A stretch of DNA of 64,000 nucleotides from Opitutales bacterium (lineage in GTDB: Bacteria; Verrucomicrobiota; Verrucomicrobiia; Opitutales; PNEW01). A model generated the notes under the pieces. It made no database searches and was not told where the DNA came from. It saw only the letters and a program-made list of their open reading frames with translations. Where the stretch lies: contig CBDANS010000005.1 of assembly GCA_965197745.1 (NCBI GenBank), positions 224,001 through 288,000 of the forward strand. Reading direction: 5' to 3'. Both the position numbers and the translations under genes were made by a program. Positions 5,925 through 12,609 of this stretch are shown in pieces. Numbering within the stretch: position 1 is the stretch's first letter; each line of letters begins with the position of its first letter.

Positions 5925-6280
5925 GACAGTCGCTCACCTGTAGAGGCACATGGATCACAAAGCTTTACATTACTGATCGGACCACGTTTTTCGTACCAAT
6001 TTTTAAGTGAGAGAGTTACCGAGTGTTGATGGTTTTAGGATTGATGTATATGAGAAATCTTGGCGAAGTGAGGGCGTAGCCCTAACGCGGCCAGGATCTG
6101 AAAGGAATCTGACAAACTCTTGCGGGCTTTTAAAGCCTAAACGACTGTAAGGATGTTCATGATTAATAGGTATGACGCCATTGTTCGATTACCACTTGAG
6201 CTTCAGCCACGCTGAGCAACACTTCGCGATTCAAACACTCATCGCGTAAGCGGTTGTGAAACGACTCAATGAAACCATTT

Positions 6281-6323
6281 GTTATTCTCGCTTTGGCTCG
6301 TTGAGGTGTCGCTTCGCTCGGTA
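6281..6323 (-). repeat. 43-nt GCGAAGC-type insertion (net +42, in frame)
   Basis: taccgagcgaagcgacacctcaacgagccaaagcgagaataac splits the conserved PGSPW-Q-NGFIES motif. Confidence 0.8.
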
Positions 6324-6403
6324 GCCAGGGACTGCCCGGATCGATATAGATCGCCTTGATGTTTTTGTCGGACAACCACTGCTGCACCTGATGAGCAATG
6401 AAT

Positions 6404-6435
6404 GGCTTCGCATGTCGTCGCTTCGCTCCTCGGGA
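6404..6435 (-). repeat. 32-nt GCGAAGC-type insertion
   Basis: tcccgaggagcgaagcgacgacatgcgaagcc splits SDNGS-E-FI; 31/32 identical to 10853-10884. Confidence 0.9.
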
Positions 6436-6973
6436 CACTGCCGTTATCACTACGGATATAGCTGGGAGCTCCCTCCTCTTCAATGGCCTCGCTAAGCACA
6501 GAGAGGACATCGGATGAGGTGAGTTGACGAGCTACCCGGATACTCAGATATTTACGCGTATATTCATCGATCAGAGTCATCATCTTTAATGGACCGCCAT
6601 TGTCTGTGCGGTCATGGACAAAGTCCCAAGACCAGACGTGATTGCGCCCCTGTAGAGACCCCTTGACGGTGTCTACGCTTTTTCGGTGGCTTTATCTGCA
6701 GCCCTTCTGAACGTCGTACCGCCTGGACAAACTTCCTGCTTGTTGCCCAGCCTTCCTTTACCAGCAAGGCACGGATGCGCCGGTAACCGTAGCAGGGATG
6801 TTCCCAGGACAGGGTTACAATCCGCTCGGTCAACCTCTGAGCTTTCTTACTGGCTTGCTTGGGCCGGTAGCTGTACGTTGACCAACTGAGGCTGAGATAA
6901 GCACAAGCCCTCCGCAACGAGCACAGCCCTCTGTCAGCCGCATCTTTTACTACTCGCTTCTTCTGCTTTGGGC

Positions 6974-7240
6974 TCACCACTTTTTTGATAGCGTTTCCTC
7001 CATCACCTGATTCTTGAGCATTTGATCAGCGAGCAGTTTCTTCAACTCGGTGTTTTCTTTTTCCAGCTCTTTAAATCGCTTCGCATCGGCCAGTTCCAAG
7101 TTGCCATACTTTTTACGCCAGCGATAGAAGGTCTGTTCACTTAGGTTGTTGCTGCGGCAGATTTCCTCTACCGTTTTACCGGTGTCGGCCTGCCGAAGTA
7201 TTCCTATAATCTGTTCTGTTGTGTATCTTTTTCTTTTCAT
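6974..7240 (-). CDS. IS3 OrfA (HTH transposase)
   Basis: MKRKRYTTEQIIGIL...SEQTFYRWRKKYG...ELEKENTELKKLLAD. Confidence 0.9.
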   Translation of the reverse strand: MKRKRYTTEQIIGILRQADTGKTVEEICRSNNLSEQTFYRWRKKYGNLELADAKRFKELEKENTELKKLLADQMLKNQVMEETLSKKW

Positions 7241-7412
7241 TGAGGTTATCTGTTTATCCCGATAACCTCTCTCTGTAAATGATACGATTTTTGGGGGCAC
7301 ATCAGTGACGTCTGATTACTGATAACTGTAATTCAATTGTTTTTCTTTGACTCATAACACTTAACTCTCAACTTTGCTTACCCTTTTCCGTTAGGTTTCA
7401 TAGTCAGACATT

Positions 7413-8504
7413 TTGAAATATAATCCTTATTCTTATTTTACTTTTGGGTTTTTAACTTTGCTGCTTTCTGTACTGCATACTGGAGGTGAGGATATAAAAA
7501 AATCTTCAGCTAAAACGGTCGACCATCCGCAAAACATTCAAAGCCCTGCAGGTATGTTATGGATTCCAGGTGGCGCTTTTATGATGGGAGATGACACAGG
7601 GAATAAGGTAATGCCGCATGGCGGCTATAACAATGAGAGCCCTGTTCATGAGGTGAAGCTCGATGGATTCTGGATAGATATGACTCCCGTGATAAACGAA
7701 CAATACGCGAAGTTTGTGGAAGAGACAGGTTACATTACCTATTCAGAACAAAAGCCCAAAGCGGAAGATTGGCCGGGTGCACTACCTGAGATGCTTATTC
7801 CCGCATCGATTGTTTTTAAACAACCCACCGGCAAAGTTGACATGAGAAATTTATATAACTGGTGGGAATATAAACCAGGTGCAAATTGGCGACATCCCGA
7901 AGGACTGGAAAGCAGTATCGAAGAGAGAATGAATCATCCCGTGGTACATGTGACCTATGATGACGCAATGGCTTATTGCAAATGGGCAGGTAAGGAGATG
8001 CCTACCGAAGCACAATGGGAGTACGCAGCACGTGGTCGCTTGGATAATAAGGTATACACATGGGGAGATCAACCCGAGCATCTTGAGAATAAAGTGATGA
8101 ATTATTGGGAAGGGAATTTCCCTTACGAAAACAGTGGCAACGATGGCCATAGTATTACATCACCTGTTGGCAGTTATCCACCCAACGGATACGGTCTTTA
8201 TGACATGGCCGGCAATGTCTGGGAATGGGTATCAGATTGGTATCATCCCCGGTATTATGAAGTCAGCTCTAAAGAAAACCCTACAGGAGTTATTAAAGAA
8301 CATAGCCTTGATCCTAATGAACCCGGTATTCCAAAACGCATTGTTAAAGGCGGATCATTCTTATGCAGCGAAAATTATTGTACCGGATTCAGGCCGAGTG
8401 CCCGTATGGCTACAGACCCACGATCCAGTTCTAATCACACGGGTTTCCGTTGTGTCGTGACGCAGAAGATGCGGGGAAATATAAATTTCCCAAAATACAA
8501 ATGA
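7413..8504 (+). CDS. Formylglycine-generating enzyme family (FGE-sulfatase/SUMF1) protein
   Basis: FMMG, HPVVHVTYDDA, PTEAQWEYAARG, NGYGLYDMAGNVWEW, GGSFLCSENYC..R, HTGFRC. Hydrophobic N-terminus. Confidence 0.92.
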   Translation: MKYNPYSYFTFGFLTLLLSVLHTGGEDIKKSSAKTVDHPQNIQSPAGMLWIPGGAFMMGDDTGNKVMPHGGYNNESPVHEVKLDGFWIDMTPVINEQYAKFVEETGYITYSEQKPKAEDWPGALPEMLIPASIVFKQPTGKVDMRNLYNWWEYKPGANWRHPEGLESSIEERMNHPVVHVTYDDAMAYCKWAGKEMPTEAQWEYAARGRLDNKVYTWGDQPEHLENKVMNYWEGNFPYENSGNDGHSITSPVGSYPPNGYGLYDMAGNVWEWVSDWYHPRYYEVSSKENPTGVIKEHSLDPNEPGIPKRIVKGGSFLCSENYCTGFRPSARMATDPRSSSNHTGFRCVVTQKMRGNINFPKYK

Positions 8505-8655
8505 CAAAATACAAATAAATTCTAATGATTGAGAAACCAAAACGACAAAAAGGATAAAAGAATATCTGATTCCTTATTATTTAATACCGTTTGGTAATTT
8601 AGATTTTGTAATTTAAATATTATTTGAGATTTGTGATTTGTCTTTTTGTCATTTG
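8498..8655. repeat. AT-rich imperfect palindromic intergenic element, copy 1
   Basis: Ends caaatgacaaaa (8498-8509) and ttttgtcatttg (8644-8655) are perfect complements. A/C-rich left arm, T/G-rich right arm. Confidence 0.65.
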
Positions 8656-8704
8656 AATTTCATGATTTTTCTTTTGACAATTTACCGATCAATCCGGTCC
8701 CACC

Positions 8705-9391
8705 ATGAGCCAATTTATCGACATACGACACGACGAAGAGCGTAATTTTCTTCGTGCCCTTAGATCTTACGACGAAGAACTGGTTAGCGCCGGTCGGGTT
8801 TTCATTGAGACGCTTCACGCAGCTGCCGAGCTTAAGGATTTAGGAAAATGTGTGACAGTATTCGGATCTGCCCGTTTTTCAGACGATCATCCTAGCTATG
8901 TACTGGCTCGCGAGATGGGAAGGCTGTTGGCGATCGATGGCTATACCGTGGTGACCGGAGGAGGTCCAGGAATCATGGAAGCAGCCAATCGCGGAGCTAA
9001 AGATGAGGGGGGCAGATCAATCGGTTGCAATATCAGTCTACCCAGGGAGCAAAAACCAAACCCCTATGTGGATCAGTTTGTTGAATTTGAACATTTCTTT
9101 GTACGCAAGATGATGCTGGTGAAACTCTCCTCCGCTTTTGTCGTTCTGCCTGGTGGATTTGGTACGCTTGATGAAGTTTTCGAGACGCTTACACTCATAC
9201 AGAACGGGAAGATCGAATCCTTTCCTCTCGTCGTCCTGGGTGGCAAGTTCTGGGACGCAATGAGCGAATTTATCACGAATACAATGATTCGTGAAGGAAC
9301 GATCGGTGAAGAAGATCTCAATCTTATTTCCTTCGCAGAGACTCCGCAGGAAGCGGTGCCATTCATCAAAGGCGATAAGAAATCAGAGTAA
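8705..9391 (+). CDS. LOG-family (TIGR00730-type) nucleotide phosphoribohydrolase
   Basis: VTVFGSAR, TGGGPGIMEAANRGA, FFVRKMML, PGGFGTLDE. Confidence 0.93.
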   Translation: MSQFIDIRHDEERNFLRALRSYDEELVSAGRVFIETLHAAAELKDLGKCVTVFGSARFSDDHPSYVLAREMGRLLAIDGYTVVTGGGPGIMEAANRGAKDEGGRSIGCNISLPREQKPNPYVDQFVEFEHFFVRKMMLVKLSSAFVVLPGGFGTLDEVFETLTLIQNGKIESFPLVVLGGKFWDAMSEFITNTMIREGTIGEEDLNLISFAETPQEAVPFIKGDKKSE

Positions 9392-9411
9392 GGTGAAATG
9401 AATTTAAGCAC

Positions 9412-9555
9412 AAAATAACAAGTTACAAACCACAAATAAATTCCAGTAGCCAAAAAACCAATTTACACAAAATAATAATCGAAAACAGTTTGGTTATTTA
9501 GAAATTGTAGTTTGGCTATTATTCGAAATTTGTATTTTGATAAATTGAGATTTAT
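9412..9555. repeat. AT-rich imperfect palindromic intergenic element, copy 2
   Basis: Shares acaaataaattc (9432 vs 8511) and gtttggtwatttaga (9488 vs 8589) with copy 1, with the same arm polarity. Confidence 0.6.
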
Positions 9556-9566
9556 TTAATAATATT

Positions 9567-10220
9567 TTGATTAATCATTCAGAAATTCATAAAAACTCGG
9601 CAAGTCGGATCATTGCGATTACGCTAATCTTTTCGATTGGATATACGATACTTCGCTACCACATCGTCGGTCCGGTACCGTGGAAAGATTTCCCCTTTTT
9701 TATTTTAAATAAAGGGGTCTCACTAAGTGCATTTATATTGCTGACTTTTAATTTCAGTTTGGGACCGTTGAAAAACCTGGGATTAAAAGTTCCTGAAAGC
9801 TGGCTCAATGCCCGCAATGCTTTAGGTATGAGCGGATTCTTGCTAGTGCTCATCCATGCATTAATGAGCTTCATGCTGTTTAATCCAAAAATATACGGAA
9901 AGTTTTTTGATCAAGACGGTTCGCTTACACTATTGGCAGGCATAAGTATGCTCGGTGGTGTTTTAGCCTTTGTCATTCTCTGGGGTTACAACCTGAGTTT
10001 TCTAACCCATCTGAGAGAAGACAAGGCATTCATCCAATTTATTACCACACGGAAATTCCTCCTAGTAGCGATGATACTCGGTGCAGTTCACTTGTTTTTT
10101 ATGGGCTACAAAGGTTGGCTCAACCCATCCAGCTGGCATGGCGGGCTGCCACCGATCAGTCTGGTGGCGTTTGCATTTTTTGTGAGCGGGTACATGATTA
10201 ATTTGTTTGGGAGAAAGTAA
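9567..10220 (+). CDS. Polytopic membrane protein, ferric-reductase/MsrQ-like transmembrane domain
   Basis: About 6 hydrophobic segments; R-N-A-L-G followed by intramembrane His (LIHA) and a second His (AVHL). Confidence 0.6.
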   Translation: MINHSEIHKNSASRIIAITLIFSIGYTILRYHIVGPVPWKDFPFFILNKGVSLSAFILLTFNFSLGPLKNLGLKVPESWLNARNALGMSGFLLVLIHALMSFMLFNPKIYGKFFDQDGSLTLLAGISMLGGVLAFVILWGYNLSFLTHLREDKAFIQFITTRKFLLVAMILGAVHLFFMGYKGWLNPSSWHGGLPPISLVAFAFFVSGYMINLFGRK

Positions 10221-10351
10221 ATTCTGAAGGACGATTCATCTCATTCGCTGAGCTATAAATAAATATTAAAATATTCCGTTTATAGTACCAAAGATGAAAT
10301 AAGAAATAGTCGAGTGTCGAGGGGCAGGTGTCGAGGGAGGAGTGAAGATAT

Positions 10352-10459
10352 ATGAAAAGTGGATTAAAAGTTTTTGGAGCTTATCATAAATCTATGGAGT
10401 TATTTGATCTTGTTGCACAAGATATGAAAACACTGAAGCCAGAATATTCTTTAACCCGT
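10352..10459 (+). pseudogene. N-terminal fragment of a four-helix-bundle (23S rRNA IVP-like) protein, truncated by IS
   Basis: MKSGLKVFGAYHKSMELFDLVAQDMKTLKPEYSLTR ends exactly at the IS IR. Preceded by short tandem-like repeats (gtcgagtgtcgagggg...gtgtcgaggg). Confidence 0.5.
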
Positions 10460-11753
10460 TGGTCGGGTTACACAAACTGGACCACTGTGAGAGTTAGTCT
10501 GGAGAGGTTAATGTTGAAGTTAAGTTGGTAGAGGGAGTCAAGACTTGGGCGCAATGAGGGCGTAGCCCGAATGGAGCCCGAGCCTTGGGTATTGATGTTT
10601 TCAGCGAAACGTTGTGGAGTAATATTGCCGAGGCTGCGGTGGGGTCGAACATGATTGTAAAGCCAGCGCCAATCTTCGATCACCACACGGGCTTCGGTCA
10701 AAGTCCACAGCTGTTCACGATTTAGACACTCCTCGCGAAAACGTGCATGCAACGATTCGATGTATCCGTTCTGCCAAGGGCTTCCTGGTTCGCTATAGAG
10801 GGTATTGATTTTCATCGCAGTTAGCCAGGCTCTCAATTCCTTTTCAATGAATGGCTTCGCATGTCGTCGCTTCGCTCCTCGGAACGGAACCGTTGTCACT
10901 GCGAATATATTGTGGCGACCCATGACGGGCAAGCAGTTTTTGCATTGATATGGCGATCCACATGGATCACTCGACACTCGCGGGTGCACTCATCGAGCAC
11001 GGTCAACATTTTTAAACTGCCACCGCGGACTGTTTTGTCGTGGATAAAATCCCAAGTCCAAACATGGCCGGGATGTTCGGCCTTTGTCGGCAGCCCGGTG
11101 GAGACACCCCTACGCCGACGCCTTGACTTGCGTGGAGGAATCGCCAAGCCCAGTTCACGTCGCAGACGTTGCACGAGCCGTTTACCCACCTGCCAGCCTT
11201 CGTCCTTCAACAGCTTCGTGATCTTCGGATAGCCCCACCTCGCGTATTACCGTGATAACCGCCTTACTGCCACCTTCAGTTTCGTTAGCCAAGCATCCGG
11301 ATGTTTGAGCCTCATAGGTATAAGTGCAACGGTCCATATGAAAGTATCGGCACGCTGCACACATCGAACACTGGCCCCGAGCCACAAGTCTTTCTGCCAC
11401 TTGCTGCCTGTACTCAGGGCTTACAGTTTTTTTTCAAGCGTCTCCTGCAGGATCTCTATCCCCAGCAGCTTGTCCGCCAGCATCCGCTTTAACTGCGCGT
11501 TCTCCTTCAAAGAGTTCCTTCATCCGCTTGGCCTGGTTGACATCAATCATCCCAAACCACTATTCCAACGGTGGAAGGTCTGTTCGCCTAGTTGTTTTCG
11601 CGGCACACTTCCAGGATCGTTTTCCCTTTGTCTGCCTGCTGCAGCATCCGTATCTCCTCTTCGGTTGTGTAGCTTTTACCTTTCATTGTCTGTGTCCATT
11701 CTAGGTGTCCCAGACTAACTTTTCAAGTGGACCAGTTTTCGTGGTCACGACCA
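10460..11753 (-). mobile_element. IS3-family insertion sequence, degenerate
   Basis: IRs TGGTCGTGACCACGAAAACTGGTCCA (11753 end) and TGGTCGGGTTACACAAACTGGACCA (10460 end). OrfA starts at 11686 (MKGKSYTTEEEIRML) but is frameshifted. OrfB motifs HVWTWDF, VLDECTRE and PGSPWQNGYIES are split across frames. Confidence 0.9.
10853..10884 (-). repeat. 32-nt GCGAAGC-type insertion
   Basis: ttccgaggagcgaagcgacgacatgcgaagcc splits SDNGS-E-FI. Confidence 0.9.
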
Positions 11754-12386: not shown

Positions 12387-12460
12387 TGCCTGGTAGTGTA
12401 ATGGTAGCACGACAGATTCTGGTTCTGTTTGTCTAGGTTCGAATCCTAGCCGGGCAGCCA
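12387..12460 (+). tRNA. tRNA-Gln(CTG)
   Basis: TGCCTGG acceptor, acaga-ttCTGgt-tctgt, GGTTCGAATCC, CCA. Confidence 0.95.
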
Positions 12461-12543
12461 TACGACGCGCTCACTGCGTTCTCTTGCTCATAACAGGTTA
12501 TTTAAAGTAGTAAGGAGATGAGAATAGGCTAGGATGAGAATCG

Positions 12544-12609
12544 TAGATTCGTTCCGAGGAGCGCTATAGCGACGACACAAGCGAAGCGTCCATCCTAGCC
12601 GGGCAGCCA
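12544..12609 (+). repeat. Duplicated tRNA-Gln 3' end, interrupted by a 40-nt GCGAAGC-type insertion (12552-12591)
   Basis: tagattcg[ttccgaggagcgctatagcgacgacacaagcgaagcgtcc]atcctagccgggcagcca versus the tRNA taggttcg-a-atcctagccgggcagcca. Confidence 0.85.

Follow-up and report, generated by a model that had tools for sequence, protein, structure and literature searches.

A 32-nt frame-shifting insert at one codon of IS3-type transposase genes in an Opitutales bacterium, and its probable place among REP- and SDR-like micro-repeats

Very short repeats lodged inside other genes or repeats have been described in several bacterial and organellar settings. Rickettsia palindromic elements (RPEs) are 100–150 nt long, lie in frame and are tolerated in functional host genes; translational bypass elements, such as that of T4 gene 60 and the mitochondrial 'byps' of Magnusiomyces, are short, GC-rich hairpin inserts of 27–55 nt in coding sequence that appear to be mobile. 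The small dispersed repeats (SDRs) of the Nostocaceae, for which we know of no enzyme, were reportedly described by Elhai et al. in 2008 (Genome Res 18:1484) as units of 21–27 nt, and are said to occur nested in other repeats. Within its consulted sections, a study of cyanobacterial genomes enriched in HIP1 gives no SDR outside the Nostocaceae among the genomes it examined (PMC5861425). Repetitive extragenic palindromes (REPs) are presented, in the portion of PMC3733652 drawn on here, as tagged stem-loops of 20–40 bp; the same portion names Opitutus terrae (Verrucomicrobia) as the species with the most intragenic GTAG REPs, reports that intragenic REPs add 20–30 in-frame residues and have stems of 6–9 bp, and describes some REPs as inserted inside other palindromic repeats. 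The subject of the present analysis is I1, a 32-nt insert shared by two diverged insertion sequences (IS) of the IS3 family in a 64,000-nucleotide stretch, referred to as the window, of the genome of a marine Opitutales bacterium (GenBank assembly GCA_965197745.1, contig CBDANS010000005.1, positions 224,001 to 288,000). The genome, designated G000, spans 4.45 Mb and is 92% complete. I1 is probably a REP- or SDR-like micro-element that was inserted as DNA, that would kill the transposase it enters, and that rides on IS copies mobilised in trans.

Both IS copies in the window carry I1 at the same point of the transposase gene, as given in the lines below, where coordinates are those of the + strand, the coding strand of the IS3 genes is the − strand, and slashes set off the residues or bases at a junction.

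5974..7304, − strand: degenerate IS3-family copy of the B/D type, its ends taken from the terminal repeats and from contig loose ends at 7297
6404..6435, − strand: I1 copy 1, 32 nt, variant starting TCCC, in the Glu codon of SDNGS/E/FI
10460..11753, − strand: IS3-family copy of the A type, 1,294 bp (family majority 1,318 bp), with extra frame breaks
10853..10884, − strand: I1 copy 2, 32 nt, in the same Glu codon

The filled site reads G[T(C/T)CCGAGGAGCGAAGCGACGACATGCGAAGCC]ATTC on the coding strand, and insert-free alleles in the same genome read GGCAGTGAATTCATT, TCCGAGTTTATT, GGCAGTGAGTTCATT or GGTTCCGAGTTTATT; from the comparison with these insert-free relatives, I1 takes the place of one base of the Glu codon and adds a net 31 nt. 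The two window inserts are identical at 31 of their 32 nt, while the IS sequence around them is only 53–68% identical: upstream, 187/328 positions agree over 300 nt, 57/108 over 100 nt and 21/31 over 30 nt, and downstream 19/31 over 30 nt and 62/103 over 100 nt. None of 100 shuffles of the window contained the 30-nt core of the insert. A preliminary description of this stretch had reported near-identical inserts between unlike flanks and had dated the insert after the divergence of the two IS, and both claims are borne out by an insert identity of 97% against the flank values above. Its further claim, that the insert splits the Glu codon of SDNGSEFI and shifts the frame by +31, agrees with the empty alleles and with the integrase-core part downstream of I1, which matches rve_3 in the shifted frame only (E values of 7e-26 and 2e-13 for the window pieces). 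I1 is thus predicted to throw the C-terminal half of the catalytic core out of frame and to knock the gene out, with loss of function. Besides the inserts, private frame breaks are seen in both window copies (6583-6640 and 10884-10960), and both copies are decaying.

Across the genome, the 30-nt core has 73 matches with no more than 3 mismatches, compared to 0 for a reversed control, and every one of the 73 is at this one codon of an IS3-type transposase gene. Clustering at 95% identity divides the genes into 21 groups, three of which are large: A (28 copies, 1,318–1,323 bp), B (15 copies, 1,351 bp) and C (10 copies, 1,350 bp). The exact core, with G or A allowed at two positions, occurs in one other species record of the genome collection, a second public Opitutales assembly with 11 copies in the same context, and a codon-anchored pattern applied to 121 Opitutales genomes was found in G000 (69), G032 (12) and G060 (14), all of one family. 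An artefact of assembly or library preparation, such as an adapter or a chimeric consensus, has nothing in its favour and comes to mind just from the short, GC-rich and repeated nature of the sequence. The preliminary description had raised a chimeric assembly of the two loci, but what is found is 73 copies in one coding context, with variants linked to IS sub-lineages, 11 copies in the separate assembly, and further copies in two other genomes of the same family and in contigs of four public runs; the likelihood of an artefact is therefore negligible. The suggestion that I1 simply prefers GAATTC does not hold either, as this genome has 1,422 GAATTC sites, yet every I1 copy lies at one IS3 codon, and related inserts occupy GAATAT, GAGTGT, CAAAAC and TCGAATCC.

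The same IS3 genes carry I1-like elements at at least five further sites with the same junction grammar, and a related insert is found in duplicated tRNA ends. The element types and the window features that belong to them are as follows.

I2, 43 nt: in LID/E/YTR, with an in-frame TGA; about 31 copies
I3, 43 nt: in PW/Q/NG, in frame; 12 copies, one of them in the window
I5, 36 nt (37 nt in one contig of public run X18): in RD/E/CLN; 13 copies
I7, 24 nt: next to the A8 slip site, on the other strand; 7 copies
I4, 38–40 nt: in TTCG/A/ATCC of the duplicated 3' ends of tRNA-Gln and tRNA-Asn
6238..6239, − strand: empty I5 target in RD/E/CLN, GATG-AG-TGT, filled in the 13 genomic copies
6281..6323, − strand: I3, 43 nt, consisting of TACCGAGCGAAGCGACA and a 26-nt tail, in PW/Q/NG, in frame, with one A replaced
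6563..6564, − strand: empty I2 target in LID/E/YTR, GATG-AA-TATACG, filled in B and C copies elsewhere in the genome
11425..11426, + strand: empty I7 target, CTTAC-AG-TTTTTTTT, adjoining the orfA/orfB A8 slip site on the opposite strand; the 7 filled copies lie elsewhere
12387..12457, + strand: tRNA-Gln(CTG), uninterrupted, its 3' end duplicated downstream
12552..12591, + strand: window copy of I4, 40 nt, two-hairpin type, in the T-loop-like TTCG/A/ATCC of the duplicated tRNA-Gln 3' end

The copy at 5974..7304 therefore holds two micro-elements, I1 and I3. Wherever the empty allele is known, the element stands after G or C and in place of the first base of AA or AG, and no target duplication is seen at these junctions: GTG-AA-TTC becomes GTG[...]ATTC for I1, GATG-AA-TAT becomes GATG[...]ATAT for I2, GGC-AA-AAC becomes GGC[...]AAAC for I3, and GATG-AG-TGT becomes GATG[...]ATGT for I5. 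A narrower rule, YG/AR/T, holds for I1, I2, I4, I5 and the case of genome G114 treated below; the genome has 35,079 YGART sites. Among the 109 genomic contexts of T[AT]CCGAGGAGC, 105 are I1, I2 or I4 inserts and four look like chance, and no longer parent element with the same ends was found among them.

The tRNA genes themselves are intact, and I4 occurs in the duplicated copies of their 3' ends. Downstream of tRNA-Gln and tRNA-Asn (window 12458-12609; locus L044, 268-361) lie one or two units that repeat the tRNA's own 3' end including CCA and have the conserved spacer CTTGCTCATRACAGG in common. These regions give RtT-like Rfam matches with E values of 0.54 (window 12513-12609) and 0.083, which are weak and below the gathering score.

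I1 is a divergent, site-locked, two-hairpin member of a genome-wide family of 23–43-nt repeats, laid out as T(A/T)CCGAG, a variable stem-loop, CGAC(GAC)A and a tail of 5–26 nt; the typical form is TACCGAG-GGCGAAGCC-CGACATCTTCC. The pattern T[AT]CCGAG-N3-26-CGAC(GAC)?A has 250 matches in the genome, compared to 14 for the same pattern written backwards. A stem of at least 3 bp can be formed by 34 of the 96 distinct middle segments as against 4.8% of shuffles, and one of at least 4 bp by 27% as against 0.9%. The stems vary by copy yet still pair (GGC/GCC, GAC/GTC, AGC/GCT, TCCCGC/GCGGGA, TCCTG/CAGGA), which amounts to compensatory variation. I1 and its IS-borne cousins form a two-hairpin subtype, each with a second motif, GCGAAGC, an unusually stable DNA mini-hairpin, and this subfamily is restricted to IS3 genes and tRNA-end copies.

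Outside the IS3 sites, about 100 members of the family occur in a 52-copy repeat resembling a miniature inverted-repeat transposable element (MITE), in heptamer tandem repeats and in a few other small repeat families. The site in the MITE-like repeat reads GTCATTGCGAGGAGCAACGCGACG..GC/A/ATCCAGG, with 23 of the 52 copies scored as filled. This repeat is about 300 bp long, has terminal inverted repeats GTCATTGCGAGGAGCAACGCGACG, and lies at G000:C6:123731 and 51 other places (e.g., L043), none of them in the window; its terminal 17–18 nt resemble the 5' part of I1, and the micro-element sits inside the repeat arm in the 23 copies. Counts of at least 11 elements are reached in 9 of 121 Opitutales genomes (G060 143, G038 138, G032 130, G000 86, G087 65, G012 37, G057 21, G097 12 and G065 11), with 0–5 in the remainder and 0–2 in controls; with high counts confined to these nine, the family is old and patchy within the order. 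When the generic pattern was run over all species, several Opitutales records were noted, and the matches listed were mostly chance. In G012, which belongs to another Opitutales family, most listed copies among the 37 pattern matches have the middle TTGAAAA, which is incapable of forming a stem and represents a hairpin-less variant.

The micro-elements were inserted as DNA. Filled and empty alleles of I1, I2, I3 and the 52-copy repeat coexist in the genome, and further alleles are found in public sequencing runs; that comparison covers contigs only, from runs with a stretch word share of at most 0.35, leaving out depths and uncovered parts. Runs X5 and X18 contain the empty I3 allele, in which position 6280 is joined to 6324 with one T between them. 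Insert-free alleles of the I1 codon take three forms on public-run contigs, all of them GAG or TAG, and no contig among them shows I1 excised from a GAA-type or otherwise filled allele. The I2 sequence appears on the loose ends of public-run contigs at 6563/6565, a 37-nt insert beginning TACCGAGGAACGTAGTGACGACA stands at 6238..6239 in one contig of run X18, and one contig from an RNA library has I5 where the window is empty. As the RNA-library contigs include inserts, no contig has I1 missing from an otherwise filled allele, and Rfam is silent at the insert, nothing points to splicing.

Known structured RNAs and recombination schemes were also considered. Rfam gave 0 matches at the insert in both gathering and permissive scans, and around I4 only the tRNA and weak sub-threshold matches, so a self-splicing intron or other known structured RNA was set aside. 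The pairings and core motifs of a bulge-helix-bulge intron or a hammerhead were absent on inspection by eye, and the junctions, worked through by hand, do not fit an integron-like G/TT crossover, a TA duplication or the dinucleotide models of serine recombinases.

The effect on the IS3 population is extensive. The number of elements per copy, counted over 79 full-length IS, is zero in 4 copies, one in 40, two in 29, three in 1 and four in 5. The sites are filled in various combinations: 35 copies hold I1 alone, 25 hold I1+I2, 4 hold I1+I2+I3+I5, 3 hold I3+I5, 3 hold I1+I3, and other combinations occur once each. The four copies free of elements, termed A', agree with one another at the site and are intact, encoding an OrfA of 88 aa and an OrfB of 307 aa (L046); this OrfB scores 217.1 bits against NF033516 transpos_IS3 (cut-off 160) and also matches rve, rve_3 and HTH_21. 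The host element shows the hallmarks of IS3, with orfA and orfB and an A8 run at their junction, and its terminal ends are TGGTCG...GACCA and TGGAGTG...GATCA. Six of 27 A copies and 6 of 24 B or C copies lie between perfect 4-bp target duplications, which differ from copy to copy. All 15 B copies (e.g., G000:C6:1052214) share an extra nonsense codon in orfB (CSF-stop-RAC) in addition to I1 and I2, and no intact B-type transposase was found in this genome. As these 15 copies have spread with a nonsense codon in common, dead copies are mobilised in trans here, and the movement of filled copies does not require I1 to be bypassed.

This bears on the possibility of recoding or removal at the RNA level, whereby ribosome bypass (a +1 shift or a hop, e.g., from CCG to CCA 28 nt on) or excision from mRNA would let filled copies still make transposase. 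Such an account would suit the many near-identical filled copies with fresh 4-bp target duplications, the CCG...CCA codon pair and AGGAG stretch within I1, and the long stop-free stretches around it: in 25 of 28 A copies the shifted frame runs for 125 codons beyond I1 without a stop, and 19 of these 25 are also stop-free over 285 upstream codons. No stop interrupts the frame upstream of I1 across orfA in 20 of the 28 A copies, and a representative differs from the A' OrfA in frame. However, B and C copies would need three events (a −1 shift, reading through the in-frame TGA of I2, and a +1 shift within I1), the spread of the B copies indicates that mobilisation in trans happens anyway, and I2 is without take-off and landing codons that would restore LID-x-YTR. 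No Rfam family is found at E≤10 over window 10780-10960, the same elements fill non-coding repeats, and the insert-free RNA-library contigs read GAG and hence represent other alleles, not spliced RNA. Recoding is accordingly very improbable.

The reading of I1 as a micro-element inserted as DNA can be put as a series of steps. Where an empty allele is known, insertion has converted YG/AR/T to YG[T...C]A T, replacing the first base of AA or AG with no target duplication, and I1 occupies the codon after the second catalytic Asp motif (SDNGS/E/F), where its net 31 nt may be expected to knock the gene out. The rise in copy number would then come mostly from hitch-hiking on defective IS copies transposed in trans, and conversion of very short patches has probably also carried I1 from one IS copy to another. 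For the enzyme, a REP-associated tyrosine transposase (RAYT)-like HUH tyrosine transposase is the sole candidate seen, and it is a weak one. A single Y1_Tnp gene was found in the genome, and among the NCBIfam models it fits REP_Tyr_transpos best, with 66 bits where the cut-off is 80; the RAYT-like gene is intact in G032 (341 aa), and of the 9 genomes holding 10 or more elements, 8 have homologues, although these genomes are related and do not provide an independent test. One related genome, G038, has 31 matches. Cas1 (PF01867) and RVT_1 (PF00078) have no match in the 92%-complete genome, and an origin of the CRISPR or reverse-transcriptase type was set aside on that ground.

Several observations weigh against this reading. 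In G000, the RAYT-like gene (L042/L150, G000:C6:163149-163742) is split into frames of 198 aa and 171 aa, compared to about 330 aa in relatives; among the 112 genomes that have no expansion of the elements, 26 also have homologues, and no element lies within about 1.5 kb of any of 10 RAYT-like loci. A mechanism using single-stranded DNA of the lagging strand might predict a strand bias, and the elements outside IS show none, with 51 against 39 relative to the leading strand derived from GC skew. Two flank searches and one alignment gave no readable clean empty orthologous site in unique DNA, as the region is too diverged at the element, and the inactivation of the transposase is a prediction from sequence. 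The element subtype differs from one IS3 site to the next, with the I1 tail confined to SDNGS/E/F (73/73), whereas free insertion out of a shared pool should bring a given subtype to several sites; the lock between subtype and site would follow if each site had a single founding event and later spread, or if the element itself carried target information. Finally, the edges of the insert are sharp in at least six IS subfamilies, a pattern that homology-driven conversion alone explains poorly.

The first of these two options, one founding insertion per site after which I1 spread by recombination or short-patch conversion together with IS proliferation and without continuing site-directed insertion, is an unlikely account. 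In its favour, besides the site-locked subtypes, the variant GCAAAGCC is tied to one IS sub-lineage in 9 of 9 copies, and a 9-copy filled variant is identical to the insert-free A' over the 1.3-kb element except for three differences: alignment columns 298-300, the insert itself, and GAG TTT as against G[I1]A TTC. Two synonymous flanking positions thus change with the insert, which fits its transfer from a filled donor IS in a very short conversion tract. There are also chimeric A/B copies joined at the insert, with the upstream half from one subfamily and the downstream half from another (G000:C7:1673744, and L032, L034 and L039 in the second Opitutales assembly). Against this account, at least six subfamilies have their own characteristic bases beginning 1–5 nt away on either side of the insert (the Ser codon beside I1 is TCC in A and AGT in B), so conversion tracts would need to stop exactly at the insert each time. 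A distinguishable variant also stands at the same codon of a divergent transposase in G114, a genome of a different Opitutales family: TACCGAGGAGCGAAGCGACGACAAAGCGAAGCGCCC at DNGP/E/F of an rve_3 protein, 36 nt long, starting TACC and with a different tail. A neighbouring G114 copy reads GGACCTGAG at the same codon before a masked stretch and looks empty; the nearest G000 look-alikes of the G114 transposase are about 40% identical to the A-type protein.

The preliminary description had taken the two window inserts for independent site-directed events. Insertion at a defined site is supported by the G114 variant at the same codon and by five further sites with the same junction grammar; independence is weakened in one lineage, where the two flanking synonymous positions that change with the insert point to the gene conversion that the description had itself named as contrary evidence. 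In the interpretation adopted here, both processes occur, with rare directed insertions followed by hitch-hiking and short-patch copying.

A stronger form of targeting can be envisaged in two ways. In one, the two-hairpin subfamily (I1, I2, I4, I5 and the G114 variant) would be a targeted 'parasite of parasites' of 32–43 nt that homes into catalytic IS3 codons and tRNA T-loop-like sequence via a guide or nuclease, converting the A-R dinucleotide to T...A by chemistry unlike known transposition; it would act as a natural drive that silences IS, with the GAG TTT copies as escape alleles. This proposal is speculative and rather unlikely. In the other, which is distinctly improbable, a dedicated anti-transposon or homing system would aim the subfamily at conserved IS3 codons, e.g., through a site-specific nuclease and copying from a filled allele, and intact IS would again be escape alleles. 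Such a system would account for the hits on 75 of 79 full-length IS, at up to four sites each and all in the most conserved motifs (LIDEYTR, SDNGSEF, PWQNG, RDECLN and the A8 slip site). It would also account for the sole intact copies, which read GAG TTT, not GAA TTC, and are otherwise near-identical to a filled lineage, and for empty alleles that are GAG or TAG in 7 of 8 cases in this genome and in all 3 insert-free contig forms of the public runs. However, members of this family also occupy non-IS repeats and tRNA-end copies, targets of the GAG type have been hit at I5, I7 and in G114, so GAG itself gives no protection, and neutral survival fits the enrichment equally, as harmless insertions persist and ride on high-copy DNA. 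No nuclease or guide was identified, inspection by eye revealed no complementarity between tail and target, and this analysis yielded no evidence of a dedicated anti-IS system. The idea of targeted IS inactivation as a dedicated function, which the preliminary description had offered, is thus not upheld for a family that is genome-wide and occupies other repeats as well.

Read as micro-elements inserted as DNA, these repeats touch on the size limit of mobile DNA, being 23–43 nt long and present at hundreds of copies in several Opitutales lineages. Their junction, with one base replaced and no target duplication, is unusual, and no known enzyme accounts for it. They are also a source of dead IS: at least one element is carried by 75 of 79 full-length IS3 copies, which annotation pipelines will label as frameshifted pseudogenes, missing the shared cause. 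The common 32-nt patch is in addition a stretch of identity between diverged IS copies, at which chimeras are joined, and it may add to rearrangement in an IS-rich genome. Should the elements prove truly targeted, they would represent a natural means of disabling transposases with a short, testable target rule.

In comparing the family with known systems, the likeness to REPs and RAYTs is considerable. The portions of the two REP studies consulted describe units of 20–40 nt in which a short stem-loop is combined with a conserved tag and a tail, at copy numbers from tens to hundreds (Di Nocera et al. 2013, PMC3733652; Bertels and Rainey 2011, PMC3116915), and place REPs within genes and other palindromic repeats (PMC3733652), as is the case here; stems that differ between copies and stay complementary are a further common trait (27% against 0.9% of shuffles at 4 bp or more). 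As far as the consulted sections go, RAYT genes are not always flanked by their own REPs, and a RAYT-like gene is present in this genome. The differences are that no conserved GTAG or CGTC tag stands at the foot of the stem, the flanks being T(A/T)CCGAG and CGAC(GAC)A with GTAG arising only by chance with some flanks, that stems are 2–6 bp, compared to 6–9 bp in the sections used of PMC3733652, and that the tail is long (5–26 nt). The present copies moreover lie almost only inside other repeats, none adjoins a RAYT-like gene (0 of 10 loci), and I1 shifts the frame of its host gene, whereas intragenic REPs, as that source describes them in part, are in frame.

The likeness to SDRs lies in very small repeats that are regarded as mobile and have a defined short insertion site, according to the consulted sections of PMC5861425; the host phylum differs, the comparison is by description, not by sequence, and targeting of a catalytic codon is not attributable to the SDR work. 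RPEs are likewise palindromic repeats within protein-coding genes (mentioned in the consulted part of PMC3733652), but I1 is 32 nt long, frame-shifting and located in a mobile-element gene. Bypass elements differ in that the present inserts have no consistent take-off and landing codon pair (CCG...CCA in I1, none in I2), are found in non-coding DNA as well, and give no evidence of ribosome skipping. Neither a frame-shifting repeat subtype at a transposase catalytic codon nor a junction with one base replaced was found described in the literature searched, which took in few subscription journals. The family is best filed with the micro-repeats of the REP/SDR type, with a striking side-effect on IS3.

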